A DNA stretch of 63,955 nt, the filler included, from Reclinomonas americana ATCC 50394 (lineage: Eukaryota): assembly GCA_048213135.1 (NCBI GenBank). It is 13 parts of 13 records of this genome, joined end to end, with 100 filler letters (N's around TTAATTAATTAA, not from the genome) between each part and the next. Parts side by side here need not be neighbours in the genome. Positions count along the whole stretch, not along the records: positions 1 to 7,330 come from AFZH01019865.1; 12 more parts are not named here. One strand, 5' to 3'. Under the pieces are notes generated by a model that made no database searches, was not told the DNA's origin, and saw only the letters and a program-made list of their open reading frames with translations. Positions 1,258 to 48,478 of this stretch are shown here, in pieces; position 1 is the first letter of the stretch; each line of letters begins with the position of its first letter. Both the position numbers and the translations under genes were made by a program.

Positions 1258-4200
1258 CTACATGTCCTCGTCCTCCTCCTCCTCCTCCTCCTCCTCACCC
1301 TAGTCCTCCTCCTCCTCTTGCTTCACCACCTCCATCTTCACCGGCTTCTCGTCGCCCACCACTACATCACGCATGTCAGTGCTGATGCCGGGACGACATC
1401 CACCAACACAAGGTGCTCCCACATTGTTGCATTTGGGAGCTCTCACCAGCACGCGCAATCTCCGCCTTTGAAAGGCAACCGTCTCGAAGCAGAGTGGCCA
1501 GTAGGCCAGGGCAATTGTGGAGCAGATACGTGGCCTGTTTGACAAAAGGCAGAAGAGTATTTGGAGTGCTTCCCTTCTGAATGTGCTCGGCACATTCCTA
1601 CAATCCGAGAAAAGCAAAGTAAGTCAGCATCGTCAAATCACAACGGAACACACAACCAGGGTCCACATGCCTCAGAGTGCCCACGCTCGTCAATCACAAT
1701 CAGTGGTCTCTCGACAGCATCCACCAGCTCATCTCCTCGAAGATCGCTCTTCTAATGATTCCACATGCACACAATGTAAGCTCGGTCAGTTGCCAGGCAC
1801 ACCACAAGCGAATGTGACACAGAAATAACAAACTGGCACTCACCTCGATGAAGTTACTCACGCTCTCGAGCACACCCTCCACTGACTTGAGCGTCTCGCT
1901 GCGTGCATTCTTGGCACTGCTGGCAAGACTCTTGCTGAATGCAGCCATGACTGCAGATGATGGACAGCCACGTCCCTCTGACGGTATGCCGCAGTCGTCA
2001 CAGGCAAGCTGGAGGAGAACACGCTGATGATGGACGACTGTAGACTCCATCACCACGGGTGCCATGAGACCGAATGCCTTCACCATCATCCTCTTCTTGT
2101 TGCAACCCTGCTCTCAGGTGTGACGGATGGGTGGGAGCGAGTGAGGAGCCGACGATGTCAGCAATGTCGGCGATACAAAGAAAAACGCAACAAGCAATCT
2201 CGCCAGCATCAATTGCTCGTTGATGCTCAACTTCGCAGTATCAATCCTGCGGCACTGTAAAACACAGGCCACGCAGTATTGAGAAGTATATCGCATGACA
2301 TAGAACGCAGCGTCGGGAGTACCTTGTTTCTCTTCGCGTCATCGTCCTCATTGTCGCTGTCGTCATCATCTCCCTTCGCATCCTTCCTCTCCTCCTCTTT
2401 CTTCACCATCTCCATGTCCCTCAGGGCTGTTCACTCATTTCTCAGCACAAGTAAGCAATGAAACCACGGCACAAGCAGCCAAACCTCTTTTACTGCACCA
2501 TTCGGCGGCACGTGCAATCTCCGCCTGCAAAAGGCAGCCGTCCCGAAGCAGAGTGGCCAGCAGGTCTGGACAGCCGTGGAGAGCCTGCATGGCCTGTCTG
2601 ACGTGCGGCAGAAGAGCATTAGGAGTGCCTCCCGTCTGCAACTTTGCTGATTCCTGGCATCCAAGCCACGGCCATGTAAGTCAGCTTTCAGTGACGCGCA
2701 TCAGCGCACACAGTTTCACACGCGCCTCTGAGTAACCACGTTCGTCAACCACAATCAGTGGCTTCTCGACGGCATCCACCAGCTCAGCTCCCCGAATACC
2801 ACTTTTCTGATGGTGACATCCACGTCAAAGTCGAGTCAGTTACCACGCATATAACAATCGAAAGGATACTGAAACAACACACCGACACTCACCTCTATGA
2901 AGTTGCTCACGCTCTCGAGAACACCCTCAGCTGACTTGGGCGTCGTACTGCGTGTATCTCGGGCACTGCTGGCAAGGCTCTCTCCAAATGCAGCCATGAC
3001 TGCGGATGATGGGCTGCCACGTCCCTCTGACGGTATTCCGCAATCGTCACAGGCAAGTTGGAGGAGAACGCGCTGATGATGCATGACTGTGGATCGCATC
3101 ACCACGGGTGCCATGAGACCGAGTGCCTTCACCATCATCCTCTTCTTGTTACCGCCCTGCTCTCGGGTGTAACAGATGGAGTGAGTGAGGAGCCGACGAT
3201 GACAGCAATGTCGGCGATACAAAGAACACGTAACAAGCAATCTCGCCAGCATCAATTGCTCGTTGATGCTCAACTTCGCAGGATCAATCTTGCGGCGCTG
3301 TGAGGCGCAAGCCATACAGAGTCAGCACTGTCTCGCATCTAACGGAAACGAGCGATGGGCGTACCTTGCCATCGTCCTCATCCTCCTGCTCTTCCTCCCT
3401 CTTCTCCTCTTTCTTCACCATCATCATCTCCCTCAGTGCTGTTCAGTCAATGTTGAGCACATGCGCACACTATGCAGCAATGCTAGTCACGCAGCCCAAC
3501 CTCGTTCACCGCACCACTCGGTGGCACGTGTGATCTCTGTCTTCGAAAGACAGCCTTCTCGAAGCAGAGTGGCCAGCAGGCCAGGACAGTTGTGGAGAGC
3601 TTGCATTGCCAGCGCGATGAATGGTTGATGGAGTGTCTGCCGGTTGTGCCGCACCCTTGGCAAGCGTGATGACTCCTGACAACCAAATTCCAGAACACAA
3701 AGCATGAGAATATGGCAGCCAATATGCACAACGCACACTGAGTGCAAGGAAGCCGCACCTCCGAATAACCACGCTCATCCACCACAACCAGGGGTCTCTC
3801 AATGGCATCCGCCAGAGCAGCGCCACGCAGTTCACTCTTCTGCATAATGCCATATACGTTAGCGATGATATTGATTCAGTCGCGCGAAATGGACGCTGCT
3901 CACCTCGATAAAGTCGCTCATCATCTGCAGCACTCTCTCAACTGACTTGGGCGTCTTGTCGCGTACCTGTTGGCAGAGCTTGGCCAAGACTCTTGCCGAA
4001 AGAGCTCACGACTGCCGCCGAAAGGCAGCCTGCTTTCGATGAAGGGATGCCACACTCCTTGCTTGCCAAGTCAAAAAGAATGCGCTGATGATGACAGATT
4101 GTGGATCCCATCACAATCGGTGCCATGACGCCGAACGCCATCACCAATATCTTCCTCTTATTGCAGCACTGCTCTCCCATGAATCAGATGAGTGGTGCAA

Positions 4201-7200
4201 TGTGCACTCAATCAGCAAGATGACTACCGAAGGAGGTCATGAATGCAATCAAACGCAACGACTAGCCTCGCCAGCATCAGTTGCTCGTCCTTGCTCATTG
4301 TGAGAGAATCACTCTCTTGTCGCTGTGAATGCGCACCATGAGATGATGCCATTGTGTGTACCCGCCACACCATCTATGGTCATACCTTGCTCCTGTCACC
4401 TTCATCGTCCTCATCTTCTTCCCCGTCGACCCTCGGTTCGTCCTCCTGTTCCTCCTCCTTTTTCTCATTCACCTCCTCTTTCTTCAGCACCTTGGCCTCC
4501 AGCAGAGCTGCATGTCGTTCGTCAGCCGAGACCCAACGCACACAGCAAAACGCATCCGATGCCTCCAAACCTCTCTCACTGCACCACTCAACGGCCCGTG
4601 CGATCTCCTCGTCGGAGAGACAGCCGTCTCGAAGCAGCGACGCTTGCAAGCCAGGACACTCACGCAGGGCCTGCGCGGCTTGGGCGATGAGAGGCAGGAG
4701 AAGGCCGTTGCCCTTCAGCTTCTTCTTCATCATCTTCCATGACTCCTGCAGCAAGATCGACATCGTGAAAAAAGAGGGCGAGTGGGCACAAACCGGGAAA
4801 TGTAGAAAGAGCACACAATGGAAAGTTTGCACACCTCCGAATGACCCCGTTCATCAACCACAATCAGTGGTCTCTCAATGGCATCCGCCAGAGCACCACC
4901 GCGCAGTTCACTCTTCTGCAAGAGTTACAAATGTATTAATGCTGGCTCACTTTCCAGTCGCACCAGAGATGGAGAGCACAGACCGATGCTCACCTCGATG
5001 AACTTGCTCATGCTCTGGAGCACTCCCTCAACTGATTTGGGCGTGTTGGTGCGTGACTTGTTGCCGACACGGCCAAGACTCTTGCCGAATGAATCCGTGA
5101 CTGCGGGCGACGGACTGCCAGCTCCCGATGAAGGAATACCACACTCATTGCAGGCGAGTTCAACGAGAACGCGCTGATGATGCCAGACTGTGTTTCGTTT
5201 CAGAATCGGTGCCATGAAACCGAATGCCGTCACCAGTAGCTTCTTATTGTTGCACTGCTGTTCGCACACATGCACGCACGCATCAAATGTCATTACGTGA
5301 CAGGCAAGCACATGGCAGAGTGCAACTAATCTGCCTTGCTGGGGTATTGCACACGCAACAAGCAGTCTGTCTAGCACGACTCGCTCGTCCATGCTCAAAT
5401 CCGCATTGAATGCATAGCGACCGCACTTGACGCGCTGCAAATACGCACTCCATGAGACATCGACAATCAACACAACTGCCTGCCAAGCCATACACAGGCG
5501 GCGACAACGCAGTACCTTGCTCGTCTTTGTTTCTTCACCATCATCACTTCCTGCATCCTCCTGTGAACGCAACGCATCAGCGCGTGGCCGAGTCCACGAA
5601 GACATACCCAGTCTCCGTCCTTCATGAACTGTTGAAGCTCACCTTAATGTCATCTTCTTCATGCTTGATGTCATCGTCGTCTTTCTTCACCACCATTTTC
5701 ACATCGCCAGATTCTGCGAGGTGCTGGTCAATAACCAAAGCAAGCACCAGTAACAGTGGCATGAGAGGGATTGCTGACCTCGCAAATGGCACCACGTGAC
5801 GGCGCGTGTAATCTCGGTCTCAGAGAGGTGGTTGTCTCGAAGCAGAAAACTCAGAAGACCATTACACTCGCGCAATGCATCCATGGCCTCCGTGACAAAT
5901 GGCTGAAGATGGTCTTTCCTGGTCTTGGTTGCTGGAGGCATTCTCTCCCATGATTCCTATCTCGAACAAGCCGAGAGAATAAACGTCAGTTGGCATGATC
6001 ACAATCAACACAAGATCGAGTAACATAAGCGCACCTCCGTATATCCGCGATCATCCACAACTATCAGTGGTCTCTCAACAGCATCCACCAGAGCCGCGCC
6101 ACTGAGCTGGCTCATCTGCAGATTGCAATCATCTGCTTGTTGGTTCAATATGCCACGGCCGTCACAACGCACACGCATGCTCACCTGGATGTACTTGCTC
6201 ACGCTCTGGAGCACACCCTTCACGGACCTGGGCGTTCGGTTGCGTGAACGTTGGGCAGTCTGACCAAGCTTCTTGCCAAATGCACACTGGACTGCCGACG
6301 ACATGCGACCCGGTGCCGACATTGGAATTCTGCAGTCGTCGCAGGCAAGCTCAAAGATAACACTCTGATGGTGGATGACGGTGGACGGCTGAACAATTGA
6401 TGCCATCAGGCCAAACGCCTTCACCAGGATCCTCTTCCGATTACATCGCTGCGAGTGAGTGATACAAGAAGAATGGTGAGTGCGACGAGGAGAAAGAGGA
6501 GCGAGGCGGGTTGCAACGATGTCAGAGAGAGCATGCACACGCAACAAGCAGCTTGTTCAGCAGCAGCTTCTCGTCTGCGCTCAATTCCACTGGTTCTTTC
6601 GCAGCTCGAGTCCTGACACGCTGTGAATCCACAACATGCGTCATTGACCCAAATGCACATCGATGAACAAGCACAACAATGTCAGCCACAGAATCCACAC
6701 CTTCCTCTTCTTTGGCGGCGCAAGCTCGTCATCGCTGGATGCATCCACCTGCAAAGAATGAAGAACAACATCAGGTGCCAACTGCCAAGCACGATCGAGA
6801 GGTAAGTGAGGCGCATGTCTCATCGGAGTTCACCTCCAGCGAACGCTTGCGGGCTGACGTCTCAACTGAGTCACGTGCAGGCAAGTCCTCGCTGTGATCC
6901 ACCAGAGACGAGTCGACTCGCTGCCTCCTCGCATGTTGCTGTGCAATCATGCCATGAAAGAGAAAGAGAGAGAGTACAGTGAGAGACATGCTCATCTTGG
7001 GATGACGCACAATCACTATACCTCGACAATGCCTTCCATCGCTGTGCGTTCCATGTGCTCCTGGTGGGCAGCTGTGTGGCATGCATCGCCCAGATGAGAC
7101 ATCACGTGACACGAGAACACCAAGGACTGCAGGAGGGAGAGAGAGAGACGCACCCTGCTCAGTGTGATTCTCCGAGTCACTTTGGGCAGCGGCAATGGCG

Positions 7201-7804
7201 GCTGTGCTCTCGTCGGTGTGCTTCTTCTTCTTCTTGTCCTTCAACAAGCCAGCTGGTTCTGCAACACGGAATGAAACAACGACAATCCATGATGAGGAAG
7301 AACAAGAAGAAGAAGAAGAATAAGAAGAAGNNNNNNNNNNNNNNNNNNNNNNNNNNNNNNNNNNNNNNNNNNNNTTAATTAATTAANNNNNNNNNNNNNN
7401 NNNNNNNNNNNNNNNNNNNNNNNNNNNNNNCACACACACACACACACACCTTTCTTGGCAGTGACACTGGTGGTGGTGACAGACGTGGAAGAAGAAGAGG
7501 AGGAAGAAGAAGAGGAGGCAGGTACTCGTCGCCTCGCCATCGCATGCGCAGGCACACCAAGATGAGCAGACGACCCCAATGCGCTCTTCTTCTTCTCATT
7601 ATCATCATCGTTGATGTTGCTGTTGATGGAGAGAGAGGAGGAATGCATCATCATCGTCGTCACATGCTGCTGCTTGCTGTCGATGAGCATCATGTCTGCT
7701 TTCTCGTCGTCGCACAGAGACGAGGAAGACATTGGCAGTGAAGGGGTTGTTGTTGTTGCTGTTGAGTGAGGGCGTGTTGGTGGAGGAGGTGGTCGAGAAG
7801 CCAT
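1258..7804 (-). pseudogene. Array gene copy A: five-domain repeat protein of unknown family, carrying a +1 frameshift and an early TAG
   Basis: Exon 1 (MASRPPPP..TAKK) splices in phase 1 across the gap to EPAGLLKDKKKK. Domains: R1 ~5640-6620, R2 ~4385-5435, R3 ~3363-4325, R4 ~2321-3300, R5 ~1258-2255. The R3 core exon is 265 nt instead of 264 (extra C near 3984); TAG at 1300-1302 is 14 codons before the conserved stop. Confidence 0.65.
7331..7430. other. Artificial 100-nt scaffold spacer (N44-TTAATTAATTAA-N44). Identical spacers start at 15132, 22825, 24655, 30038, 32472, 37283, 43076, 45881, 48553, 60363 and 61630
   Basis: Identical length and a six-frame-stop linker in all 12 gaps; most are flanked by microsatellite or low-complexity sequence. 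Confidence 0.98.
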
Positions 7805-8939: not shown

Positions 8940-11900
8940 CTACATGTCCTCGTCTTCCTCCTCCTCCTCCTCCTCCTCCTCCTCCTCATCCTCCTCCTCC
9001 TCCTCATTCTCCTCCTCCTTTTTCCTCCTCCTCCTCTTTCTTCACCACCTCCATCTTCACCGCCTTCTCGTCGCCCACCACTGCATTCATGCTCGTCAGT
9101 GCTGCTGCCGGGACGACATGCAACACCACAAGGTGCTCCCACATTGTTGCATTTGGGAGCACTCACCGGCACGCGCAATCTCCGCTTTCGAAAGACAACC
9201 GTCTTGAAGCAGAGTGGCCAGAAGTCCAGGGCAATTGTGGAGCAGATGCATGGCCTGTGATACAAAAGGCAGAAGAGTATTTGGAGTGCTGCTCTTTCGC
9301 AACTTGTCTGATTTCTGCCACTCGAGAATACGACAGCAAGGTCAGTCATCACATCCTCGGAGCACAACAGCGATCCCAATAGTCGTCGTCCACATGCCTC
9401 AGAGTAACCGCGCTCGTCAATCACAATCAGTGGTCTCTCAACAGCACCCACCAGTGCAGCGTCGCGAAGTCCGCTCTTCTATTGATTCCACATGCACACG
9501 ACGCAAGGCAGGTCAGTTGCCAGGCACACCACAGGCGGATGTGCAACATAAAACATCACACAGGCACTCACCTCGATGAAGCTGCTCACCATTTCGAGCA
9601 CACCCTCAACTGACTTGAGCGTCTCGCTGCGTGCATTCTTGGCACTGCAGGCAAGACTCTTGCCAAATGCAGCCATGACTGCGGATGATGGACAGCCCGG
9701 TCCCCTCGATGGTATTCCGCAGTCGTCACAGGCCAGCTGGAGGAGAACTCGCTGATAATGGCGGACAGTGGATTCCATCACCACGGGTGCCATGAGACCG
9801 AATGCCTTCACCAGAACCCTCTTTTTGTTACCGCCCTGCTCTCAGGTGTGACGGACAACCAGAGTGGGAAACCAGGGTGGGAGTGAGTGAGGAGTTTATG
9901 ACAGCAATGCCGGCAATACGAAGAACACGCAACAACCAATCTCGCCAGCATCAATTGCTCGTTGATGCTCAACTTCGCAGGATCAATCTTGCGACGCTGT
10001 GAAACACAAGCCACGCAGTTTTCAGAAGACAAATATCATGCATCACAAAGAGCGCAGCGTCGGGCGTACCTTCTTTCTATTCGCGTCATCGTCCACATTG
10101 TCGCTGTCGTCATCATCTTCCTGCTCACCCTCCCTCTCCTCCTCTTTCTCCATCATCTCCATCTCCCTCACAGCTGTCGCTCATCTCTCAGCACACGTAA
10201 GCATCAAAGCCGCGAGCACAAGCAGCCAAACCTCTTTTACTGCACCATTCGGCGGCACGTGCAATCTCCGCCTGCGAAAGGCAGCCGTCCCGAAGCAGAG
10301 TGGCCAGCAGGTCTGGACAGCCGTGGAGAGCCTGTATGGCCTGCATGACGTGTGGCAAAAGAGCATTAGAAGTGGCTCCCTTCTGCGACTTTGCAGCTGA
10401 TTCCTGTCATCCGAGCCAGCAATGTAAGTCAGCTTTCAATGACGCGCATCAGCACACACAGTTTCACACGCACCTCAGAGTAACCACGTTCGTCAATCAC
10501 AATCAGTGGCTTCTCGACGGCATCCACCAGCTCAGCTCCCCGAAGACCACTCTTCTGATGGTGACATCCACGTCGAAGTCGAGTAACGTACCACACACAA
10601 AACAATCGGAAGGATACTGAAACAACACACCGACACACTCACCTCTATGAAATTGCTGACACTCTTGAGCACACCCTCAACTGACTTGGGCGTCTCACCA
10701 CGTGCTCTATTGGCACTATCGGCAAGACTCTTGCTGAATGCAGCCATGACTGCGGCCGAAGGGCAGCCCCGTCCCTCCAACGGTATTCCGCATTCGTCAC
10801 AGGCAAGTTGGAGGAGAACACGCTGATGATGGAGGACTGTGGGTCTGAGCACCACGGTTGCCATCAGGCCGAATGCCTTCACCAGCATCCTCTTCTTGTT
10901 GCGACCCTGCTCCGAGGCAAGGTGAGCAGATGGGAGTAACAGCATTGTCGGTGACATGCAGAGAGATAACAGCAACACGCAACAAGCAGTTTCGCCAACA
11001 TCAGTTGCTCGTTGATGCTCAGCTTCCCATGACCACTCTTGCGGCGCTGTGAAGCGCAAACCACACAGAATTAGGACACGCACCTGCCTCGCATCTAACG
11101 GAAACGAGCGACGGGCGTACCTTGCCATCGTCCTCGTCCTCCTGCTCTTCCTCCATCTTCTCCTCTTTCTTCACCATCTCCATCTCTCTCAGAGCTGTTC
11201 AGTCGTTGGTGAGCATATGCACACACTGTGCAGCTATGCAAGTCACGCAGCCAACCTTGTTCACCACGCCACTCGGCGGCGCGTGCAATCTCTGACTTCG
11301 AAAGACAACCATCTCGAAGCAGAGTGGACAGCAGGCCAGGGCAGTTGTGGAGAGCTTGCACTGCCAGCGTGACGAATGGCTGATGGAGTGTCTGCGTGCT
11401 GCGCTGCATCGTCGGCAACTTTGACGATTCCTGACAACCAAATTCCAGAACACGGAGTATGAGAATATGGCAGCCCATATGAACAACGCACACTGAGTGC
11501 GGGGCAGCCGCACCTCAGAAATGCCACGTTCATCAACCACAACCAGGGGTCTCTCAATGGCATTCGCCAGAGCAGCGCCACGCAGTTCACTCTTCTGCAT
11601 AATGCCACACATACATTAGCGATGATATTGATTCAGTCGCGCGAAATGAATGCAGCTCACCTCGATAAAGTCGCTCATCATCTGCAGCACTCCCTCAACA
11701 GACCTGGGCGTCTTGTCGCGTACCTGTTGGCAGAGCTTGGCAAGGCTCTTGCCGAGTGAGCTCACAACTGCCGACGAAAGACAGCCTGCTTTCGATGAAG
11801 GGATGCCACACTCCTTGCTTGTCAAGTCAAAAAGAATGCGCTGATGATGGCGGACGGTGGATCCCATAACCATCGGAGCCATGACGCCAAATGTCATCAC

Positions 11901-14900
11901 CAATATCTTCCTCTTATTGCAGCACTGCTCTCCCATGAATCATATGGGTGGCGCGATGAACACTCAAGTAGCCAGACAACTACCGAAGAAGGACAAGACT
12001 GCATGCACACGCAACAAGTAGCCTCGCCAGCATCAGCTGCTCATCCTTGCTAATTGTGTGAGAATCACTCTCTTGTCGCTGTGAATGCGCTCCATGAGAC
12101 GATGCCTGTATGCACGCACCCCATCATCCATGGTCATACCTTGCTCCTGTCACTCTCACCCATATCGTCCTTCCCGCTCTCCTCCCCGTCGACCCTCGAA
12201 TCATCCTCTTCCTCCTCCTCCTCCTCCTTCCTCTCTTCTTTCTTCAGCACCTTGGCCTCCAGAAGAGCTGCATCTTGCTTGTCAGACCTGACAGCAGGAC
12301 ACGCCCGATGCCATCAAACCTCTTTCGCTGCACCACTCGACTGCCCGTACGATCTCCGCCTCGGAGAGACAGCCATTTCGAATCAGCGACGCTTGCAAGC
12401 CAGGGCACTCACGCACGACCAGCGCAGCTTGGGCGATGAGAGGCAGGAGAAGGTCGTTGCCCTTCAGCTTCATCTTCATCATATTCCATGACTCCTGCAG
12501 CACGTTCGACACCGTGAAAGAAGCGAGTGAGTGGACACAACCGGGAAATGTAGAAAGCGCACGAAGGAAAGTTTGCACACCTCCGAATGACCCCGTTCAT
12601 CAACCACAATCAGTGGCCTCACAATGGCATCCGCCAGGGCAGCGCCGCGCAGTTCACTCTTCTGCAAGAGTTACATGTATTAATGCTGGTTCACTTTGCA
12701 GTCATGTCTGAAATGAATTGCACAGACAGCTGCTCACCTTGATGAAGTCGCTCATGCTCTGGAGCACTCCATCAACTGACTTGGGCATGTCCCTGCGTGC
12801 AGACTTGACGGCATGGCCAAGAGTCTTTCCGAATGAATCCGTGACTGCGGGCGACGGGCTGCCAGCTCCCGATGAAGGAATACCACACTCATTGCAGGCG
12901 AGTTCAACGAGAACGCGCCGATGATGCAAAACAGTGGATGGCTTCAGAACTGGTGCCATAATGCCGAATGCCGTCACCAGTAGCTTCTTATTGTTGCACC
13001 GCTGTTCGCACACATGCACGCACGCACCAGGTGTTATGACAGTCAAGCACATGGCAAGGTGTAACTAATCTGCCTTGCTGGGGTATTGCAGCACATAAAC
13101 ACGCAACAAGCAGTCTGTGCAGCATCATTCGCTCGTCCGTGCTCAACTCTGCATTGAATGCATAGCGACCGCACTTGACGCGCTGCAAATACGCACCACA
13201 TGACATCGACTTATCAACACAACTGCCTCCCAAGCCATACACGGGCGACGACAACGCCGTACCTTACTCGTCTTTGATTCTTCACCATCATCACTTCCTG
13301 CATCCTCCTGTCAAAGCAACGCATCAACGCGTGGCCGAGTCCAAGAAGACACAGCCAGTCTTCGTCATTCATGAACTGCTGATGCTCACCTTGGTGTCAA
13401 CTTCTTCACGCTTGATGTCATCGTCGTTTTTCTTCACCACCATTTTCACATCGCCAGATTCTGCGTAATGCTGGTCAACACCAGTGCATGCAACAACAAC
13501 AGTCGCACGAAATCACAGACCTTTTGATTGGCACCACGTGACGGCGCGTGCAATCTCGGCCTCACAGAGGTGGTTGTCTCGAAGCAGTGCAGTCATGAGA
13601 CCATCGCACTCGCGCAGCGCATCCATGAACTGCTTGACAAACGGCTGAAGATGGTCTTTCCTGGTCTTGGTTGCTGTTGGCATTCTCTCCCATGATTCCT
13701 ATCTCGAACAAGCCGAGATAATAAACGTCAGTTGGCATGATCACAACCAACACAAGATCGAGTAACATAAGCGCACCTCCGTATATCCGCGATCATCCAC
13801 CACAATCAGTGATCTCACAACAGCATCCGCCAGAGCCGCGCCACTGAGCTGGCTCATCTGCAGATTGCAATCATCTGCTTGTTGGTTCAATATGCCACAA
13901 TCGCCGCAGGGACACATGCTTGCTCACCTCGATATAGTTGCTCACGCTCCGAAGCACGCCCTCAACTGATTTGGGCGTTCTGTTGCGTGAATCACTTGCA
14001 GTTTGACCAAGCTTCTTGCCGAATGCACACTGGACTGCAGACGACGTACGATCCGGTGCTGACAATTGAATCCCGCAATCGTCACAAGCCAGCTCAAAGA
14101 TAACACTCTGATGGTGGATGACGGTGGACGGCTGAACAATTGATGCCATCAGGCCAAACGCCTTCACCAGGATCCTCTTCCGATTACATCGCTGCGAGTG
14201 AGTGATACAAGAAGAATGGTGAGTGCGACGACGAGAAAGAGGAGGCTGAAGGGGTTACAATGATGTCGGAGAGAGCATGCACACGCAACAAGCAGCTTGT
14301 TCAGCAACAGCTCCTCGTCAGCGCTCAACTCCACTGGTTCTTTCGCAGCTCGAGTCTTGCCGAGCTGTGAATTCACAACACGCAGGATTGACACAAGAGA
14401 ACCCACATGCACATCAATGAAGAAACACAACAATGTCAGTGACAAAGAATCCATACCATCTTCTTCTTCTTTGGCGGTGCAAGCTCGTCGTCGCTGGATG
14501 AATCCACCTGCAGAGAATGGAGAGAACATTAGGTGTCAACTGCCATGCATGAGCGAGAAGCAAAGTGAGACGCGCGCCTCATCGGAGCTCACCTCCAGAG
14601 AACGCTTGCGGGATGATGTCTCATCTGAGCCACGTGCAGGCAAGTTCTCACCGTGATCAACCAGGGACGAATCTACTCGCCGCCTCCTCGCATGTTGCTG
14701 TGCAATCATGCCATGAAAGAGAGAGCGAGAGAGTTCAGTTAGAGACATGCTCATCCTGGGATGACACACACAATCACTATACCTCGACGATGCCTTCCAT
14801 CGCTGTGTGTTCCATGTGCTCCTGGTGGGCAGCTGCGTGGCATGTACCACCCAGGTGAGACACTACGCGACACGAGAACACCAATGACTGCAGGGGAGAG

Positions 14901-15131: not shown

Positions 15132-15271
15132 NNNNNNNNNNNNNNNNNNNNNNNNNNNNNNNNNNNNNNNNNNNNTTAATTAATTAANNNNNNNNNNNNN
15201 NNNNNNNNNNNNNNNNNNNNNNNNNNNNNNNGTCGAACAAGGCGACAAGACACGAAGGAGGAGAGATAAAC

Positions 15272-16839: not shown

Positions 16840-23245
<6,406 letters not shown>

Positions 23246-24416: not shown

Positions 24417-27400
24417 CTACATGTATTCCTCCTCGTCCTCCTCGTCCTCCTCCTCCTCCTCCTCCTCCCCCTCCTCCTCCTCCTCCTCTTCCTCCTCCTC
24501 CTCCTCCTCCTCCTCCTCCTCCTCTTCCTCCTCCTTTTTCTTCACCACCTCCATCTTCACCGGCTTCTCGTCGCCCACCACTGCATTATGCTCGTTAGAA
24601 ATGACGGTGGCACGACATGCAAAAACAGCAGATGCTCCCACATTGTTGCATTTGNNNNNNNNNNNNNNNNNNNNNNNNNNNNNNNNNNNNNNNNNNNNTT
24701 AATTAATTAANNNNNNNNNNNNNNNNNNNNNNNNNNNNNNNNNNNNNNNNNNNNAATGCCTTCACCAGAACCCTCTTCTTGTTGCAACCCTGCTCTCAGG
24801 TGTGACGCATGGGTGGGAGCGAGTGAGTAGCTTATGACAGCAATGCCGGCAATACGAAGAACACGCAACAACCAATCTCGCAAGCATCAATTGCTCGTTG
24901 ATGCTCAACTTCGCAGGATCAATCTTGCGGCGCTGTGAAACACAGGCCACGCAGTATTGAGACGTATATCATGCATCACAAAGAGCGCAGCGTCGGGCGT
25001 ACCTTGTTTCTCTTCGCGTCATCGTCCACATTCTCGCTGTCGTCATCATGTTCCTGCTCAACCTCCCTCTCCTCCTCTTTCTCCATCATCTCCATCTCCC
25101 TGACAACTGGCCACTTGCTTGTCAGCACAAGTAAGCAACAAAGCCACGAGCACAAGCAACCAAACCTCTTTCACTGCACCATTCGGCGGCACGTGCAATC
25201 TCCGCCTGCGAAAGGCAGCCGTCCCGAAGCAGAGTGGCCAGCAGGTCTGGACAGCCGTGGAGAGCTTGTATGGCCTGTCTGACGTGTGGCAGAAGAGCAC
25301 TAGAAGTGGCTCCCTTCTGCCACTTTGCTGCCGATTCCTGTCATCCGAGCCTCAGCAATGTGAGCCAGCTTTCAATGACGCGCATTAGCAAACACAATCT
25401 CACACGCGCCTCAGAGTAGCCACGTTCGCCAATCACAATCAGCGGTCTCTCGACGGCATCCACCAACTCAGCTCCCCGAAGACCACTCTTCTGATGGCGA
25501 CATCCACGTCGAAGTCGAGTCAGGTACCACGAACATAGCAATCGGAAGGATACTGAAACAACACACCGACACACTCACCTCTATGAAATTGTTGAAACTC
25601 TTGAGCACACCCTCCACCGACTTGGGCGTCTCACCACGTGCTCTATTGGCACTATCGGCAAGACTCTTAACAAATGCAGACAAGACTGCGGCCGAAGGGC
25701 AGCCCCGTCCCTCCAACGATATTCCGCATTCGTCACAGGCAAGTTGGAGGAGAACGCGCTGATGATGGAGGACTGTGGATCTCAGCACCACGGGTGCCAT
25801 CAAACCGAATGCCTTCACCAGCATCCTCTTCTTGTTGCAACCCTGCTCCGAGGCGCAGTGAGCAGACGGGAGTAACAGCATTGTCGGTGACATGCAGAGA
25901 TAACAGCAACACGCAACAAGTAACTTCGCCAACATCAGTTGCTCGGTGACGCTCAGCTTCCCAGGACCGCTCTTGCGGCGCTGTGAAGCGCAAACCACAC
26001 AAAGTTAGGACACGCATCTGTCTCGCATCTAACGGAAACGAGCGACGGGCGTACCTTGCCATCGTCCTCGTCCTCCTGCTCTTCCTCCCTCTTCTCCTCT
26101 TTCTTCACCATCTCCATCTCCCTCAGTGCTGTTCAATCGTTGTTGAGCATATGCACACACTGTACAGCTATGCAAGTCACGCAGCCAAACCTCGTTCACC
26201 GCACCACTGGACAGCACGTGTGATCTCTGTCTTTGAAAAACAGCCGTCTCGAAGCAGAGTGTACAGCAGGCCAGGGCAGTTGTGGAGAGCCTCTATAGCT
26301 TGTGTAAAAAACGGCAGAAGAGGACTCTGCCTTCTGTGCTGCATCCCCGGCAACTTTGACGATTCCTGACAACCAAATTCCAGAACAGAAAGCATGAGAA
26401 TATGGCAGCCAATATGTACAACGCACACTGAGTGCGGGGCAGCCAACCTCCGAATAGCCACGTTCATCCACCACAACCAGGGGTCTGTCAATGGCATCCG
26501 CCAGAGCAGCGCCACGCAGTTCACTCTTCTGCATAATGCCACATACATTAGCGATGGTATTGATTCAGTCGCGCGAAATGGACGCTGCTCACCTCGATAA
26601 AGTCGCCCATCATGTGCAGCACTCTCCCAACTGACTTGGGCGTCTTATCGCGTACCTGTTGGACGACACTGCCAAAATTCTTGCCGAGTGAACTCACGAC
26701 TACCGCCGAAAGGCAGCCTGCTTTCGATGAAGGGATGCCACACTCCTTGCTTGCCAAGTCAAAAAGAATGCGCTGGTGATGCCGGACGGTGGATGGCAGC
26801 ACAATTGGCGCCATGATGCCAAACGCCATCACCAGTACCTTCCTCTTATTGCAGCACTGCTCTCGCATGAATCACATGGGTGGTGCGGTGAAAACTCAAT
26901 CAGCCAGACAACTACCAAAGAAGGACAAGACTGCAATCAAACGCAACAAGCAGCCTCGCCAACATCAGTTGCTCGTCCTTGCTCATCGTTGTTGGAGCAG
27001 TCCCTTGTCGCTGTGAATGCGCTCCATGAGACGATGCCAGTATGCACTCACCCCATCATCCAAGGTCATACCTTGCTCCTGTCACCTTCGCCGGAGTCGT
27101 CCTCATCTTCCTCCCCGTCGACCCTCGAATCATCCTCTTCCTCCTCCTCCTCCTCCTCCTTTTTCATCATTTCTTCCTTCAGCACCTTCACATCCAGCAG
27201 AGCTGCATCTCGTTCGTCAGTTCTGGCAAGTTGCACAGGAGAACGTATTCGACGCCGTCAAACCTCTGTTGCTGCACCACTCGACGGCCCGTGCGATCTC
27301 CTCCTCGGAGAGACAGCCGTCTCGAATCAGCAACGCTTGCAAGCCAGGACACTCACGCAGGGCCTGCGCGGCTTGGACGACGAGCGGCAGGAGACGGTTG

Positions 27401-29943
27401 CTGCCATTCGGCTTCTTCTTCATCATATTCCATGACTCCTGAAGCACGATCGACATCGACGCGGGTGAGTGGACACAAACCGGGAAATGCAGAAAGCACA
27501 CAAAGGAAAGTTTGCACACCTCCGAATGGCCCCGTTCGTCAACCACAATCAGTGGTCTCTCAATGGTATCTGTCAGAGCAGCGCCGCGCAGTTCGCTCTT
27601 CTGCAAGAGTTACATATGTATTAATGCTGGTTCACTTTGCAGTCACGTGTGAAATAGACAGCACAGGCAGATGCTCACCTTGATGAAATCGCTCATGCTC
27701 CGGAGAATTCCCTCAACTGATTTGGATGTCTTGGTGCGCGCTTGCTGGACGACATGGACAAGAGTCTTGGCGACTAAATCCATGACTGCGGGCGACGGAC
27801 TGCCACCTCCCGATGAAGGAACACCACACGCATTGCAGGCGAGTTCAACGAGAACGCGCTGATGATGAAAGACTGTGTTTCGTTTCAGAATCGGTGCCAT
27901 GATACCGAATGCCATCACCAGTAGCTTCTTCTTGTTGCACCGCTGTTCGCACACATCCACGCACGCACCAGGTGTTATGACAGGCAAGCACATGGCAGAG
28001 TGCAACTAATCTGCCTTGCTGGGGTATTGCACACGCAACAAGAAGTCTGTCCAGCACGGTTCGCTCGTCCATGCTCAAATCCGCATTGAATACATAGCGA
28101 CTGCACTTGACGCGCTGCAAATACGCACCCCATGAGACATCGACAATTAACACAACTGCCACCCAAGCCGTACACAAGTGGCGACAACGTCGTACCTTGC
28201 TCGGCTTTGATTCTTCACCATCATCACTTCCTGCATCCTCCTGTGAACGCAACGCATCAGCGCGTGGCCGAATCCACGAAGACACGCCCAGTTTCTGTCA
28301 TTCATGAGCTGTTGATGCTCACCTTGCTGTCAACTTCTTCATGCTTGATGCCATCGTCGTCTTTCTTCACCACCATTCTCACATCGCCAGATTCTGCGAG
28401 GTGCTGGTCAACACCGATGCAAGCAACAACAACAGTCTTATGAAATCGCAGACCTTTTGATTGGCACCAAGCGACGGCGCGTACAATCTCGGCCTCAGAG
28501 AGGTGGTTGCGTCGAAGCAGAGAAGTCAGAAGACCATCACACTCGCGCAGCGCATCCATTGCCTGCTTGACAAACGGCAGGAGATGGTCTTTCTGACTCT
28601 TGTTCTGAGGCGCCAATCTCTTCCACGATTCCTATCTCGAACAAGCCGAGAGAATAAACGTCAGTCGGCATGATCACAACCAACATAAGATCGAGTAACA
28701 TAAACGCACCTCCGTATATCCGTGCTCATCCACCACAATAAGTGGTCTCTCAACGGCATCCACCAGAGCCGCGCCACTGAGCTGGCTCACCTGCATTGTG
28801 CAATCATCTGCACGTTGGTTCATCTGTCACTATCGTTCACTGATACGTATGCATGTTCACCTCGATGCAATTGCTCACGCTCTGGAGCACACCCTTCACG
28901 GACCTGGGCGTTCTGTTGCGTGAATCACTTGCAGCTTGACCAAGCTTCTTGCCGAATGCGCACTTGACTGCAGACGACGAGCAACTCAGCTCCGACGATG
29001 GAATTCTGCAGTCGTCGCAGGCAACGTCGAAGATAGCACTCTGATGGTGGATGACGGTGGATTTCTGAACAACGGGTGCCATCAACCCGAATGCCTTCAC
29101 CAGCACCCTCTTCCGATTGCATCGCTGTGAGTGATACAAGAAGAATTGTGAGTGCGACGAGGAGAAGGAGGAGACTGAAGGGGTTGCAACGATGTCAGAG
29201 AGAGCATGCACACGCAACAAGCAGCTTGTTCAGCAGCAGCTCCTCGTCTGCGCTCAACTCCACTGGGGTTTTCGCAGCTCGAGTCTTGTCACGCTGTGAA
29301 TTCACACCATGCGTCATTGACACACAAGAGCCCAAATGCAGATCGACGAACAAGTACAACAATGTCAGCGACAGAGAATTCACACCTTCTTCTTCTTCTT
29401 CTTTGGCGGCGCAAGCTCGTCATCACTGGATGCATCCACCTGCGGAGAATGAACAGAAACATCAGGTGTCAACTGCCAAGCACGAGCAGGAGCAAGTGTG
29501 ATGCATGCCTCATCGGAGTTCACCTCCAGAGAACGTTTGCGGGCTGACGTCTCAATTGAGTCACGTGCAGGCAAGTCCTCGCTGTGATCCACGAGAGACG
29601 AGTCGACTCGCCGCCTCCTCGCGTGTTGCTGTGCAATCATGCCCAGAGAGAGAGAGAGAGAGAGTTCAGTTAGAGACATGCTCATAATGGGATGACACAC
29701 AATCACTGTACCTCGACGATGCCTTCCATTGCTGTGTATTCCATGTGCTCCTGGTGAGCAGCTGGGTGCATGCATCGCCCAGGTGAGAACTACGCGACAC
29801 GAGAACACCAATGACTGCAGGAGAGAGAGAGAGAGACGCACCCTGCTCAGTGCGGTTCTCCGCGTCACTTCGGGCAGCGGCAATAGCGGCCGTGCTCTCG
29901 TCAGCGTGCTTCTTCTTGTGGCCCTTCATGAAGTCAGCTGGTT
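24417..29943 (-). CDS. Array gene copy D, 5'-partial (exon 1 not visible; most of domain R5 lost in gap 24655-24754)
   Basis: Exon 2 (EPADFMKGHKKKH) starts at 29943; domains R1-R4 are complete; ends EEEYM* at 24417. Confidence 0.78.
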
Positions 29944-30265
29944 CTGCAACACGGAATGGAACACACGACAATCCATAATGAGAAAGAAGAAGAAGAAGAA
30001 GAAGAAGAAGACAAGAGAAGAAGAAGAACAAGAAGAANNNNNNNNNNNNNNNNNNNNNNNNNNNNNNNNNNNNNNNNNNNNTTAATTAATTAANNNNNNN
30101 NNNNNNNNNNNNNNNNNNNNNNNNNNNNNNNNNNNNNTCTCTCTCTGTCTCTGTCTCACTCGTTCTCTCTCAGTCTCTCCCTCTCCCTCTCTCTCCCTCT
30201 CTCTCCCTTCCCCTTCACCGCTCTCCATCTCCCTTCCCCTTCACCGCTCTCTCACCCATTCACAG

Positions 30266-32192: not shown

Positions 32193-35100
32193 ATGAGCGA
32201 CCAGGCGGCCATTGAGATGAGCACGCGCGTTGCAGCGCACATGCGACCACACCGCGAGTCCAGTGTGACTGCACACGCCACGTCACCCTTCCGTCGCGGT
32301 CGCATCTTGGCCGAGTTCATTGCAGCACTCATTCTCTCAGTGAGTGTCAAAGAGAGACAGAGAAAGTGAGTAAGGGATGCTAACTTGTGCTCTTTCTGTG
32401 TGTGTATGTGTGTGTCTGTGTGTGTCTGTGTGTGTGTGCGTGTGTGTGCGTGTGTGTGTGTGCCTCTGTGTNNNNNNNNNNNNNNNNNNNNNNNNNNNNN
32501 NNNNNNNNNNNNNNNTTAATTAATTAANNNNNNNNNNNNNNNNNNNNNNNNNNNNNNNNNNNNNNNNNNNNTTCCCCTCTTTTCCTCTTTTCCCCCTCTT
32601 TCCCCCTCTTTCCCCTCTTTCCCCTCTTTCCCCTCTTTCCCCTCTTTCCCCCTCTTTCCCCCTCTTCCCCAATCTGTTTCCTCTCTCCTTCCCCTCCCCT
32701 CTCCCTTCCCCTCTCCCTCCCCTCTTTCCCCCTCACTTCTCCTTCTCCCTTTTCCCATCCCTCTCACGCCGCAGGTCGAGCGCCTGATCACCTCCTACCC
32801 CGACGACGGAGTCACGGTGCTCTCCGACGAGGACATTGCCGGCAACAACTACAAGGGTAAGCCGAGCGATTTCACCCGCCATCTCATCTCTCCTCTCACC
32901 ATCCACCTCAGCCATTCCGGTCAACGCCACCGTCAGCGACGCCATGATTCCCGCCTTTGTGCAAAAGATGCACCCGCGAACTGGAGAGGTTGCGTCGTGT
33001 CTCGGCGCATTGTATCGACACGCTCGTCGCCACTCATTTTGCAGATGCAGTCCTTCTCGTCCACCACCAACTTGTACAAGCGCGTGGAGGGTCTCCTCGG
33101 CACCGTCATGCCTGACCGCCTCCGACAGTCGAACAACTGGGTGCGCGAGATTTGGTGAATGCTGCGCTGGCAAAAACTCATTTCTTTTGTGTGAAAACAG
33201 GTGGTGGGCAAGAACACCAAATCCGGCAAGCCCCTGCTGGCCAACGGTGCGTGCGGAGGGAGATGATGCGCAGCCCTGTTGCTGTTTCTGACGAGTTCAT
33301 GATGCAGACCCGCATCTGGAACTCACGCTGCCGTCAATCTGGATCCTCAACCATTTGCGCTCGGCCAACTTTGAGGTCATTGGCGCTGCATTCCCTGGTT
33401 TGTGGATTAATCACTGTGTGCTTTTGTCGCTAGTGCGTGGCTCAAGGCAATTGTGCGCGACAGGTGCTCCGGGTGTGATTATTGGTCGCAATGAAGTGAT
33501 TGCGTGGGGAGTGACCAATGCCGGTACTGATGTGCAGGCGAGTGTGGATTGAGGCAGCCTTGCTCCTCATGAAATCCTCTCACATACCACTACAGGACCA
33601 CTTTATCATGGACGGCACCGCCACCCAGTACAAGTGAGTTGTTGACTGGCGCTGCTCCTCCTTCTTTCTCACTTCTCACTCGCTCATCAGGCACGAGGGC
33701 GAGATGAAGCCGTACACCATGCGACAGGTCCGTTTCCTTACTGTGGTGTTGTTGTCGATCTTGTTTCTTCTTTCTTCCTCTCTTCGTCTTCTCTTCCTCG
33801 TTCTGCGCTTACTCCTCCTCTCCTCGTTGTGTTCTTCCATTTCCTTCATTCTGTTGCGCTCTTTCGCAGCACTCACTTTCGTGATCGCAGGAGGTGATCA
33901 AGATCAAGGGAAAGAGCTCGGTGAGTGCCGCTCGCTTGCTTTTCCGGGCAACTAAATCATCGTTGCTCACCGCCTCGTTGTCGCAGAAAACCATCCAAGT
34001 CCGCGAGTCCGTGTACGGTCCCGTGATCAATGAAGAGGGCGTGACTTCAAGCGGCGAGCAGCCTCTGTGCTTGCACTGGATCGGACTGTTCCCGGGTGAC
34101 ACGACGTTGCGTGTGCGGTGTCGGACGGTGGTCGTTGATGAGCAGCACGCTGACGGTATCATGCGCAGCCTCGATTCAATGTACAAGATGGCGCGTGCGG
34201 CCAGCTGGGCCGATTTTGAGGATGCCTTGCGGTCGTACACGGCACCGGCTCAGGTCTTGCTGTCTTGCTGCAGTTGTTTGCTGTTGGTGGTCACTTACAC
34301 GCTTTGCGATTGCAGAACTTTGTGTATGCCGACGTCAAGGTTTGACATGAGTTGTGTGCTTGCTGTGTTGGATTTGTTGCTGATTGGCTCTCTCCACTTG
34401 CAGGGCAATTTTGGTTATCGCACGAGTGGACTGGTGCCCGTTCGCAGTTGCGTTTGGACAAACAGCGCGGAGCATGATCATTTTTCCGTTCTTCCTCCGC
34501 AGAGGGAGAGGGGCAGGCAGCGAGACGTAAGGATCTTCTCTCCTTCCCCGTTTTCTTTCAAGTCGCACCCATCGTTCTCTTCCCAGTCCCTTCCCTCAAT
34601 CCCTTCCCATCCCCTTCCTCCTCAATCTCTTCTCTCTTCTCCTTCCCCCTCCCTTCCCATTCCCCCTTTCCTTCCTACTCCCTTCCCATTCCCGCTTCCC
34701 TTCCCCTTCCCCTTCCTCCTCAATCCCTCCGCTCTTCTCCTTCCTCTTCAGTCCTTTCTCTCTTCTCCCTTCCTCCTCAATCCTCATCCCCTTCCCTTCT
34801 CCCTCCCTTCCGATTCCCGCTTCCCTTGCGTTCCCTTTTTTTCAATCCCTTCCCCTTCCTCTTCAATCCTTTCTCTCTTCTTCCTTCCTCCTCCCTTCCC
34901 TTTCCTCCTTCCTTGCCTTCCCCTTCCCCTTCAATCCCTACCCCTTCCCTTGCGTTCCCTTTTTTCCCATCCCTTCCCCTTCCTCTTCAGTCCTTTCTCT
35001 CTCTTCCCTTCCTCCTCAATCCTCATCCCCTCCTCCATCGCTTTTCCCTTCCCCTTCCCTTCCCCTTCAATCCCTTCACCCTCCCCTCAATCCCTCCCGC

Positions 35101-37795: not shown

Positions 37796-37895
37796 TATCG
37801 CGTCTAGAAAAGGAAGATGTAATGGCGTGCGCACAGAATCGTTTTGCATTGTTTTTTCTCTCGCTCTCCTCTCCTTTCCTATTTTGTATGGACTC

Positions 37896-44153: not shown

Positions 44154-45640
44154 TCACTCCACCTTGCGATGATCGCCACTCTGTTCCGCGACTGCGTGGC
44201 GACGGCTGCTGCCGCCGCCGAGCTTGGCGCGTCGCTGAGCAAACATGTGCATCATCATCTTGGGCGACAGGACCGGATAGAGGGCCAGCAGGAAGCGCAG
44301 GCAGAGGCCGTAGTCGAAGACGACGTTCCATGTGTTGGGCAGGGTCCAGGTGAACAGGCGGAAGAGCTCGACGTATTTGAGGCTGTACCAGATGACGCCG
44401 GCTGGAAGGGGAAGGGGGTGGGGTGAGAGGGGGAAAGGGACAAAGGGAAAGGGGGAGAACGGGGAAGGGAGAAGGAGAAGGAGAGGCGGGCAGGGAGGGG
44501 AAGAATACGAAGGAATAAGGAGAAGGCAAAAGGGAAGACGAGAAGGTGAGAAAAGGGGGAAAGAGAAGGGAGAGGAGTGAGCAACACGAGGCTTGCAGTA
44601 TTGCGCGAAGGGAGAGTGCCTTATGGATTGTGAGGATCTCAGAGCGAAGGGAGAGGATTTTGCAAGAGGAGGTGAGGGTCTGGAGACGCATGAGCCAGGG
44701 TTGTGAAAGTGAAACGAAATACGGGCGAGCACGAATCGAAGAGCTTGTTCCGAGAGTGATTGATGCGGAAAGACTGACAAGAGAGAAGTATGGGCACAAG
44801 CTAATGGCTATTGCTCGCTGCTGCTGCACGGATTGCAAAAACGATTCTGCTTTAGCTACAAGAGAGAAACAGATGGAGGATATCGTGAACAATCCATCAG
44901 CTTCGGAATGATGAAACAGCGAAAGAAAGAAAGAGAGAGAGAGAGATAGATAGATAGATAGATAGAAAGAGGAACAGAGAGAGAGAGAGAGTAAGAAAGA
45001 AAGAAAGAGAGAAAGTGAGAATGAGAGAAAAAGTGAATGAGAGAAAGAGAGAAAAATAGAAAGAAAGAGGAACAGAGAGAGAGAGAGCAAATGAAGAGTG
45101 AAACGGAGATCTGCAACAAAAGGAACAGCTTCTTTCAACCAACTGTGTCACACGATGATAGCTCACTATATGGTGGTCCGTGAATGCCTCAATCTCGCTT
45201 GCAGTCGGACAAGGGAGAGGAATAACAGCAGCGTGCGACCATCAGCTTTGCACGACCATGCATTCACCCCTCACGCACCTTCCGTGACAAACCCGACGGG
45301 GTACAGCGGAATGAACAGCGAGTAGCGCAACCACAGCAGCCAATGCGGTGCGGCCGAGCCGAGAATGTACATGGGATAGCGCACAAGCTGCAACATACAT
45401 GAGCCTCAACTCCGCGTCATCTCCGCTGACCATTGCCATTCGCAAACCTCAATCATGCTCCAGGCCAGGAAGAGCGGCAGCACCCACCCGGAGGTCTGCA
45501 CCGACGGTATGCGCCACAGCAGCGCCAGCAGCACGTGATTGCGCCCAAACACTTGCATGAGGGTCGGAACAATACCGCCCGACAAGCCCATGAAAGCGTG
45601 CACGAGCTCGAGGAAGGCCATGGTCTGCAGCACGACTGAG
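44154..45640 (-). CDS. HACD: Very-long-chain 3-hydroxyacyl-CoA dehydratase (PTPLA/HACD/PHS1), 5'-partial
   Basis: LQTMAFLELVHAFMGL..TLMQVFGRNHVL..LAWSMIE; LRYSLFIPLYPVGFVTE; LPNTWNVVFDY..HMFAQRRAKLG; stop ends at 44154. Confidence 0.92.
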
Positions 45641-45990
45641 GAGGGGAGCAGTGAGTCAAGGACGACAAGAAGGAAAGGATGGGAGAGGAAAGAGGAGGAG
45701 AGGAACGAGGAGAGGAACGAGGAGGAGAGGAACGAGGAGACGAGGAGACGAGGAACGAGGAGGAGAGGAACGAGGAGAAGTGGAACGAAGAGGAGAGCAA
45801 CGAGGGGGAGGAGAGCAACGAGGGGGAGAGGAGCAACGAGGGGGAGAGGAGCAAGGAGGAGAGGAGCGAGGAGGAGAGGANNNNNNNNNNNNNNNNNNNN
45901 NNNNNNNNNNNNNNNNNNNNNNNNTTAATTAATTAANNNNNNNNNNNNNNNNNNNNNNNNNNNNNNNNNNNNNNNNNNNNCCGACGATTT

Positions 45991-48372: not shown

Positions 48373-48403
<31 letters not shown>

Positions 48404-48448: not shown

Positions 48449-48478
48449 GGAGGGGTTTGCAGTGATTGAGATAAAGAA

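Follow-up and report, generated by a model that had tools for sequence, protein, structure and literature searches.

A variable segment, predicted to lie in an amphipathic helix, in the repeated modules of four paralogous genes of Reclinomonas americana

Four paralogous genes and the anatomy of their modules

The window discussed here is a stretch of 63,955 nucleotides from Reclinomonas americana ATCC 50394 (assembly GCA_048213135.1), in which 13 parts of 13 records are joined end to end. It is eukaryotic, as judged by its short GT/GC-AG introns and by the neighbouring genes. From about 1.3 to 29.6 kb it carries four paralogous genes on the minus strand, U1 to U4, with a unit length of approximately 7.8 kb. 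Each gene contains five modules (R1 to R5), which amounts to 20 modules over the four genes. The subject of this analysis is a short, hypervariable and mostly basic segment in exon b of these modules, which an earlier note on the same DNA had proposed as a specificity helix under diversifying selection. The parts of the window are separated by 12 N blocks (7331-7430, 15132-15231, 22825-22924, 24655-24754, 30038-30137 and seven others), each built as 44 N, TTAATTAATTAA and another 44 N, which are read as contig-join spacers carrying stops in six frames. Since the spacers make each gene unit its own contig, both the count of four units and the order in which they follow one another depend on scaffolding. 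The genes and their copies of exon b are located as follows:

1300..6950, minus strand: gene U1, with the start codon at 6950, modules R1 to R5, a poly-Glu tail and the stop codon at 1300-1302
6700..6950, minus strand: N-terminal exons 1 and 2 of U1, MIAQQHARRQRVDSS...SARKRSLE / VDASSDDELAPPKKRK; exon a of R1 continues with RVRTRAAKEP
6185-6451, 4994-5260, 3905-4171 (frameshifted), 2893-3159 and 1844-2110, minus strand: exon b copies of U1
9004..14709, minus strand: gene U2, five modules, start codon at 14709
13928-14194, 12738-13004, 11661-11927, 10643-10909 and 9572-9838, minus strand: exon b copies of U2
16840..22547, minus strand: gene U3, five modules, start codon at 22547
21780-22046, 20584-20850, 19508-19774, 18492-18758 and 17450-17716, minus strand: exon b copies of U3
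24417..29640, minus strand: gene U4, start codon at 29640, four complete modules, with a putative stop read from the sequence
28861-29127, 27679-27945, 26593-26859 and 25579-25845, minus strand: exon b copies of U4

Each gene begins with two small N-terminal exons (MIAQQHARRQRVDSS...SARKRSLE / VDASSDDELAPPKK(R/K)K...). The start codon is conserved among the four genes, and a poly-Glu tail precedes the stop. The modules recur with a period of 1.03-1.19 kb of DNA, or approximately 260 residues, and are spread over five exons, a to e. The second module of U1 (U1R2) is arranged as follows:

4323..5434, minus strand: module U1R2, exons a to e, with introns of approximately 70-130 nt
5360-5434, minus strand: exon a
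4994..5260, minus strand: exon b, 89 codons, with an AG acceptor and a GT donor at 4993-4992
4835-4915, minus strand: exon c
4572-4745, minus strand: exon d
to approximately 4386, minus strand: exon e, acidic

Exon a carries the motif ..LSxxEQLMLARLL, the 27 codons of exon c read KSELRG..PLIVVDERGYSE, exon d has about 58 codons and ends on ..EWCSER in phase 1, and the acidic exon e terminates in AAG|GT. By tblastn, exon b was recovered in 19 copies of intact length, all on the minus strand and all of 89 codons; the 20th, in the fifth module of U4, is interrupted by the contig-join spacer at 24655-24754. Exon phases and AG acceptors are conserved across the modules. In a tally of the per-module readings, 75 of the 76 copies of exons a to d are free of stops and in the phase expected of them, and exon e is open to a donor or a stop codon in all 19 readings. 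Between modules at the same position, the number of gap columns per pair is 0-0.7 in exons and 2.5-7.2 in introns, and the p-distance is 0.084-0.141 in exons and 0.130-0.172 in introns. Exon b of U1R3 (3905-4171, minus strand) has an extra G at about position 3985, within the variable segment (CTTGGCC, compared to CTT-GCC in U2), which shifts the frame into a stop. This extra G could be a true lesion or a base-calling error.

Two further observations concern the splice sites. The donor of intron 3, after exon c, is GC in five of the 19 modules (at about 2725, 1670, 9397, 17286 and 25409), in the form GAG|GCGCGT or GAG|GCATGT, and GT in close paralogues; judged from these sites, GT and GC donors swap freely in the modules of R. 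americana. The junction between exons a and b is ambiguous in U1R2 (intron 5261-5359, minus strand) and likewise in all modules. As the acceptors at this junction are phase-0 only, the donor must be either CTT|GTTGCG or the GC donor GTT|GCGTGT, and the conspicuous donor GC|GTGTGC would disrupt the frame.

The variable segment of exon b: predicted structure and rate of change

The earlier note had described a basic stretch that varies among same-position copies in the interval 4990-5260. This interval corresponds to exon b of U1R2 (4994-5260), and the variability is confirmed. Straight translation recovered the strings quoted for the R2 modules (KSLGRVGNKSRTN / KTLGHAVKSARRD / KTLGKAVQQARTK / KTLVHVVQQARTK), for the R1 modules (QTAQRSRNR / QTASDSRNR / STAMNSRHE / QAASDSRNR) and for the R3 modules (SLAKLCQQVR versus NFGSVVQQVR). 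The R3 copy of U1 is the one frameshifted within the segment, and because the extra G shifts the frame, the string given earlier for this copy is a frame-corrected reading. The variability is concentrated in two stretches of the module, given here for U1R2:

5045..5083, minus strand: hypervariable segment, codons 60-72 of exon b (KSLGRVGNKSRTN), the window with the highest proportion of nonsynonymous differences (pN)
4701..4745, minus strand: second hypervariable basic stretch, the first 15 or so codons of exon d (ESWKMMKKKLKGNGL), with indels and a predicted local distance difference test score (pLDDT) of 48-68 over residues 1-20

Among same-position copies, pN in codons 60-72 is 0.224 versus 0.090 in the other 76 codons of exon b, while the proportion of synonymous differences (pS) is 0.234 versus 0.229 in the rest of the exon. 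Of 77 sliding windows of 13 codons, those from 60-72 to 63-75 form the pN peak. That pS hardly differs between the two speaks against a mutational hot spot, and also against conversion that homogenises the flanks only. Minimal tree-free counts of nonsynonymous and synonymous changes (N:S) are N42:S10 for the segment versus N119:S94 for the rest of exon b (Fisher p = 8e-4). The Lys near the start and the Arg near the end that were said to be retained are indeed kept: of the 18 copies, 17 have Lys60 and every one has Arg70. The net charge of the segment is positive in 17 of the 18 copies and zero in one, with two to five K and R and zero to two D and E. Two parts of the earlier description do not hold. 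The flanks, called near-identical, are more conserved than the segment, yet have a pN of 0.09 and a ratio of nonsynonymous to synonymous rates (dN/dS, omega) of 0.37. Neither is the domain otherwise conserved, as the first 18 or so codons of exon d are equally variable and contain indels as well. This opening of exon d (ESW..KKSTKN) has a pN of approximately 0.25, an omega of 0.6-0.9 and counts of N62:S15 over 18 columns. The whole module shows two pN peaks, each of approximately 0.25, one in the segment of exon b and one at the start of exon d, and both stretches are polar and mostly basic in composition.

The structure of exon b was predicted with AlphaFold2 from an 18-copy alignment of this exon alone. 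The model has a mean pLDDT of 73.5 and four helices (2-16, 22-39, 52-72 and 77-88), with the segment in the C-terminal half of helix 3 (52-72). Over codons 58-74, the spectra of entropy and of hydrophobicity both peak at 100 degrees, with 3.6 and 4.3 times the mean power, respectively. When the residues are plotted on a helical wheel, the polar positions that vary (60, 61, 64, 67, 68, 71 and 72) fall within 340-120 degrees, and the conserved L62, A/V66 and A69 together with the invariant R70 fall within 180-280 degrees. The amphipathic helix put forward in the earlier note is supported by the predicted helix and, independently, by the 100-degree periodicity of entropy and hydrophobicity. The segment is probably on the exposed side of the helix. 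For exon d, AlphaFold2 gives three helices (16-29, 31-39 and 45-57), with residues 1-15 at low confidence, and neither of the isolated models contains strands. When exons b, c and d were supplied as separate chains, the complex prediction score was 0.02, which has no bearing either way.

Selection on the segment was assessed by codon likelihood (GY94/F3x4). Branch lengths were either fitted under M0 or obtained by scaling those of a nucleotide tree built with IQ-TREE; posteriors for sites are naive empirical Bayes values. The overall omega is 0.44. In a partition model on the full tree, omega is 1.00 for the segment and 0.38 for the rest of exon b, and equality of the two is rejected with a doubled log-likelihood difference (2dl) of 42.3 (p = 8e-11). 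When each module type has a tree of its own, omega is 0.97 for the segment and 0.37 for the rest (equality p = 1e-8). The dN/dS of the segment is thus higher than elsewhere in the exon, as had been anticipated, at approximately 1.0 compared to 0.37, but it cannot be distinguished from 1 (p = 0.88-1; p = 0.88 with separate trees). If sites are instead grouped by their place on the helix, omega is 1.49 for the polar face (p = 0.034 against 1) and 0.42 for the packing face. Tree-free minimal changes were also compared to neutral expectation. They amount to N41:S11 in the segment (neutral N fraction 0.736, p = 0.25), to N31:S6 on the polar face (0.80 expected, p = 0.37) and to N118:S96 in the rest of exon b, which lies below the neutral value of approximately 0.74 (p = 2e-9).

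Site models give a signal at particular codons. For exon b, the comparison of M2a to M1a yields a 2dl of 20.4 with the tree of exon b, 20.6 with separate trees and 26.5 with the tree of the whole module, with approximately 5% of sites at an omega of about 3.6 and P > 0.9 at sites 22, 64, 67 and 68. This signal is sensitive to two mosaic copies. With U1R4 and U3R5 left out, 2dl drops to 6.26 (p = 0.044), and P is at least 0.9 only at sites 22 and 64.

Mosaic sharing among the copies appears from several comparisons. In the exon-b tree, U1R4 groups with the R5 modules, whereas the whole-module tree places it with R4 at 99% support. U1R4 and U3R5 have the block CGA GAT .. AG[TC] ACG in common, and V-Q-Q is common to the R2 modules of U3 and U4 and to R3. 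Codons 67-68 and 71-72 differ by multi-nucleotide blocks, and the same blocks recur across module types:

2944-2982 and 17501-17539, minus strand: one shared variant block
20635-20673, 27730-27768 and 19559-19597, minus strand: another shared variant block

These shared blocks, together with the conflict between the trees, point to short gene-conversion tracts. According to the PAML guide, false positives can be very frequent in site tests when recombination is high, and gene conversion and multi-nucleotide changes are listed among the causes (PMC10127084). Because conversion and multi-nucleotide blocks are both seen here and the signal shrinks without the mosaics, diversifying selection is not accepted as proven. 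For the diversifying selection proposed earlier, the site models give a 2dl of 20-26 with all copies and of 6.26 once the two mosaics are dropped, and the segment-wide omega of approximately 1 and the neutral tree-free counts do not bear it out. The signs of such selection are suggestive, yet not robust in the face of the gene conversion seen here; as minimal counts are conservative, omega may exceed 1 by a little at a small number of sites. The robust statement is that the segment has an omega of approximately 1 and that residue identity on its polar face is unconstrained, within a frame that is under purifying selection.

Possible roles of the polar face

The explanation to which we lean, with slightly better than even confidence, is that the segment is the exposed polar side of the amphipathic helix 3 in a lineage-specific, probably nuclear module, where it changes in a near-neutral way and its variants are shuffled by conversion. 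In its C-terminal half, helix 3 of the four helices of exon b would turn a polar side towards the solvent, and the segment would be this side; the host module would be a lineage-specific, all-alpha unit of approximately 200 residues. The packing side (L62, A/V66 and A69) and the basic anchors K60 and R70 would be kept by purifying selection. At positions 61, 64, 67, 68, 71 and 72, residue identity would be free and would change at about the neutral rate, with the polar, mostly basic character being kept. Gene conversion would move short blocks of variant codons among modules and genes, and because of this movement same-position modules would look sharply different in a conserved frame. On each module, the polar side may then serve as an exposed, positive patch for contacts that evolves fast. 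Along with the basic, probably disordered start of exon d, this patch could touch a polyanionic or variable partner with no fixed residue code. Even on this sober reading, the locus would offer a clean example of conversion and multi-nucleotide changes that mimic positive selection in site models, a trap illustrated by the fall in 2dl from approximately 20 to 6 on removing two sequences.

Several points weigh against this explanation. The exposure of the segment is predicted from exon b folded alone, at a pLDDT of 73.5. In three designs, M2a places sites 64, 67 and 68 at P > 0.94 with an omega of approximately 3.6. For the whole module (229 columns) 2dl is 19.96, P exceeds 0.9 only at these same three sites, and outside exon b no site is above 0.5. 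The core polar sites 64, 67, 68 and 71, a set chosen post hoc, have an omega of 2.33 (p = 2e-4). Since minimal counts are conservative against an omega above 1, real diversifying selection may act on three or four residues. Lastly, decay is possible, as a frameshift lies within the segment in one copy of exon b out of 19.

The nuclear location that is part of this explanation is probable, because of an NLS-like N-terminus (NLS, nuclear localisation signal), the acidic linkers and the poly-Glu tail. The N-terminus has a basic cluster, PPKKRK or PPKKKKKK followed by RVRTR, that is conserved in all four genes and that we take to be NLS-like from its resemblance to classical NLS motifs. Among the N-termini of the four genes, a conserved signal peptide or export signal was not found. 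The nuclear hints and the basic patches do not separate DNA, RNA, an acidic protein partner or an intramolecular contact with the acidic linkers as the binding target.

A different possibility, which we hold to be unlikely, is that the polar face contacts other proteins and that diversifying selection on it is real, driven by an arms race or by diversification of partners among the paralogues, with conversion generating the combinations. M2a is significantly better than M1a on all designs, with p = 0.044 even after pruning, and the polar-face omega of 1.49 differs from 1 (p = 0.034); moreover, variant codon blocks are shared in a cassette-like way between module types, and the four paralogues stand in a tandem array. 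However, the tree-free counts are compatible with neutrality, and the sources of false positives named in the PAML guide (high recombination, conversion and multi-nucleotide changes; PMC10127084) are all seen here. The nearest general likeness is to fast-evolving, conversion-diversified tandem multigene families, with which the present genes have in common a paralogue array, mosaic short blocks and, set in a conserved frame, a surface patch that is hypervariable. They differ from such families in that positive selection is not robust and in having no secretion signal, the latter being a further point against the protein-contact reading.

Less probable still, and in our judgement improbable, is the model that goes back to the earlier note, with helix 3 as a recognition helix that determines specificity in an array of nucleic-acid-binding modules; residues 64, 67, 68 and 71/72 would set the target and be under diversifying selection. 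The residues that vary follow an i, i+3, i+4, i+7 spacing on one face between K60 and R70, the site-model signal is limited to 64, 67 and 68 in the 229-codon module, and the net charge of the segment (positive in 17 of 18 copies, zero in one) and the NLS-like N-terminus are in keeping with such a helix. By analogy, polymorphisms in zinc-finger arrays are concentrated in DNA-contacting residues (PMC6116924). Weak winged-helix matches in exon d (4 of 18 copies, E = 0.059), no proof alone, also fit. On the other side, the segment omega is not above 1, the selection signal without the two mosaic copies is left at p = 0.044, and the second variable stretch, at the start of exon d, is probably disordered. 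Profile searches in Pfam and the PDB gave no DNA- or RNA-binding family, fold searches stayed at noise (best Z 5.3 and 4.0), and modules of approximately 260 residues with long acidic linkers are unlike code repeats of 28-35 residues. The comparison to modular DNA-binding arrays drawn in the earlier note is thus not borne out: no DNA-binding family or fold was found, and the module length and acidic linkers set the array apart from short arrayed repeats.

C2H2 zinc-finger arrays (PRDM9, KRAB-ZNF) are alike in having tandem repeated units, a conserved scaffold and variation at a few helix positions on one face. In PRDM9, variants are likewise reshuffled between repeats by recombination or conversion (PMC6116924). 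The present modules differ from fingers of 28 residues in that they span approximately 260 residues and five exons with acidic linkers, in that their segment omega is approximately 1, and in that no C2H2 motif (C-x2-4-C-x12-H-x3-5-H, approximately 28 residues) or Pfam zinc-finger family was detected in them. The C2H2 family is absent from the Pfam results for the open reading frames (ORFs), the 18 exon-b copies and the 18 exon-d copies. Two zinc-type Pfam rows are weak and come from one copy each (zf-Mss51, E = 0.073; Zn_ribbon_DUF2089, E = 0.14), and the spacing of H27/H28 with C37/C40 is not that of C2H2. The modules resemble TALE, PUF and PPR code repeats in the idea of a target set by a small number of residues in each module, and in the presence of several modules per protein. 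TALE, PUF and PPR repeats are approximately 33-36 residues long and stack in one solenoid. The modules here are long, set apart by disordered acidic linkers and without a family match; their period of approximately 260 residues is far from the 30-40 residues of short code repeats, and exons b and d, compared by hhalign (probability 0.55%), show neither a mutual nor an internal repeat.

A bolder form of the recognition reading, which we rate as very improbable, would make these genes a new class of modular nuclear proteins. Residues 64, 67, 68, 71 and 72 of helix 3 would read DNA, RNA or a chromatin mark, K60 and R70 would be the anchors, and conversion would shuffle "reader cassettes" between modules, giving rise to new specificities. 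If true, a protist lineage that is poorly sampled would have a long-module counterpart of the zinc-finger and TALE codes. Should the polar face prove to be a binding surface of any kind, it would represent a new protein module with compact specificity positions and 19 natural variants.

The family and fold searches behind these judgements gave little beyond chance level. In Pfam, the large ORFs matched no family at E <= 1 save one chance-level row, and the 18 exon-b copies gave single weak rows at chance level; sequence profiles of exons b and d against the PDB likewise gave rows at chance level. The exon-b model found nothing at E <= 0.001 in Foldseek, and its best Z in a wide VIA-align search was 5.3, under the tool's noise mark. 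The exon-d model found no match in Foldseek and reached a best Z of 4.0 in VIA-align, also under the noise mark. Atlas feature matches pointed to generic alpha-solenoid families (score 0.87-0.90, 110-143 shared features) with low recognition (1671); for a HEAT/ARM/TPR-like alpha-solenoid there is no Pfam match, and the exon-b VIA-align Z is 5.3 at best.

Two leads for exon d are weak and find no support in the models. HTH_24, a winged helix-turn-helix (HTH) family of Pfam, matched 4 of the 18 exon-d copies with a best E of 0.059 and none at E <= 0.001, below the gathering score of the family. Compared with HTH folds, the three-helix model of exon d has no Foldseek match and a best VIA-align Z of 4.0; any third HTH helix or wing would fall in exon e, beyond this model. 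The second lead is a cysteine-containing leucine-rich repeat (LRR) of the F-box/LRR type, such as COI1. The exon-d motif C-P-x-L-x-x-L-L-R-D-G-C-L-S-x-x-E-I-A-R-A aligns without gaps to one COI1 LRR unit (E = 0.086), which is the best PDB row for the exon-d profile, although weak and a single unit. Unlike COI1-type LRRs, exons b and d show no repeat periodicity and are predicted, as isolated exons, to form helices only, and the variable segment lies in exon b instead.

Homologues were sought more widely. A profile search (hmmsearch) with exon b against 1.84e9 representative proteins gave no credible relative. Its sole match, P0001 (E = 5e-8), is judged spurious, being a low-complexity repetitive protein of which six stretches of a ...YAVDNSAVQSLGKDQTKVETFTV... 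unit were matched; we presume this repeat to be of the bacterial adhesin type. Word-indexed searches for longer proteins gave none with the exon-b ORF, and none at E <= 0.1 with the exon-d alignment, and scans of metagenome and viral contigs gave no relatives of the module. Judged from its sequences, the host lineage is poorly sampled, and the conserved exon of the neighbouring WDR35 gene has 54-66% identity to the listed protein matches, which come from very diverse eukaryotes. Because of this poor sampling, the lack of a homologue is weak evidence of uniqueness, and the module may be unsampled rather than unique.

That the array is decaying or non-functional, as young duplicated pseudogenes or an assembly artefact in which the variable stretch is noise, is the least credible explanation: the frameshift inside the U1R3 segment, the fairly high overall omega (0.44), an exon p-distance (0.084-0.141) little below that of introns (0.130-0.172), the separate contig of every unit between spacers and the absence of homologues in protein, metagenome or viral searches are in its favour, but the rest of exon b is well under neutral (N118:S96 versus 0.74, p = 2e-9), 75 of 76 copies of exons a to d are in phase and stop-free and 19 of 19 copies of exon e are open, the indels seen in introns are absent from exon b, which has 89 codons in each of its 19 copies, and the variability follows helical periodicity instead of being uniform.

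Neighbouring genes and other features of the window

Outside the four genes, scans of the window with Rfam and for tRNAs gave no match, and the antisense ORFs over exon b (4845-5177 and 6024-6263, plus strand) matched no Pfam family. A Pfam scan placed the following neighbouring genes, which together span 45406-63790:

45.4-45.9 kb (from 45406): PTPLA
approximately 47.2-47.7 kb: RNase H2 subunit B
49.9-52.6 kb: TTI1
56.3-60.4 kb: WDR35/IFT121
61.7-62.2 kb: Aa_trans amino-acid transporter

Two ORFs on the plus strand match the Pfam family Penicil_amidase (34531-35601, E = 3e-15; 37335-37913, E = 8e-8) and are broken up by low-complexity stretches and one spacer. Long, purine-rich simple repeats are found at 47331-48323 (plus strand), 43176-43283 and 44897-45103. 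Opposite the RNase H2 subunit B region lies a Lys/Glu-rich ORF on the plus strand, with a (GGAAGGAGGG)n-like repeat and (GA)n/(GATA)n runs nearby.

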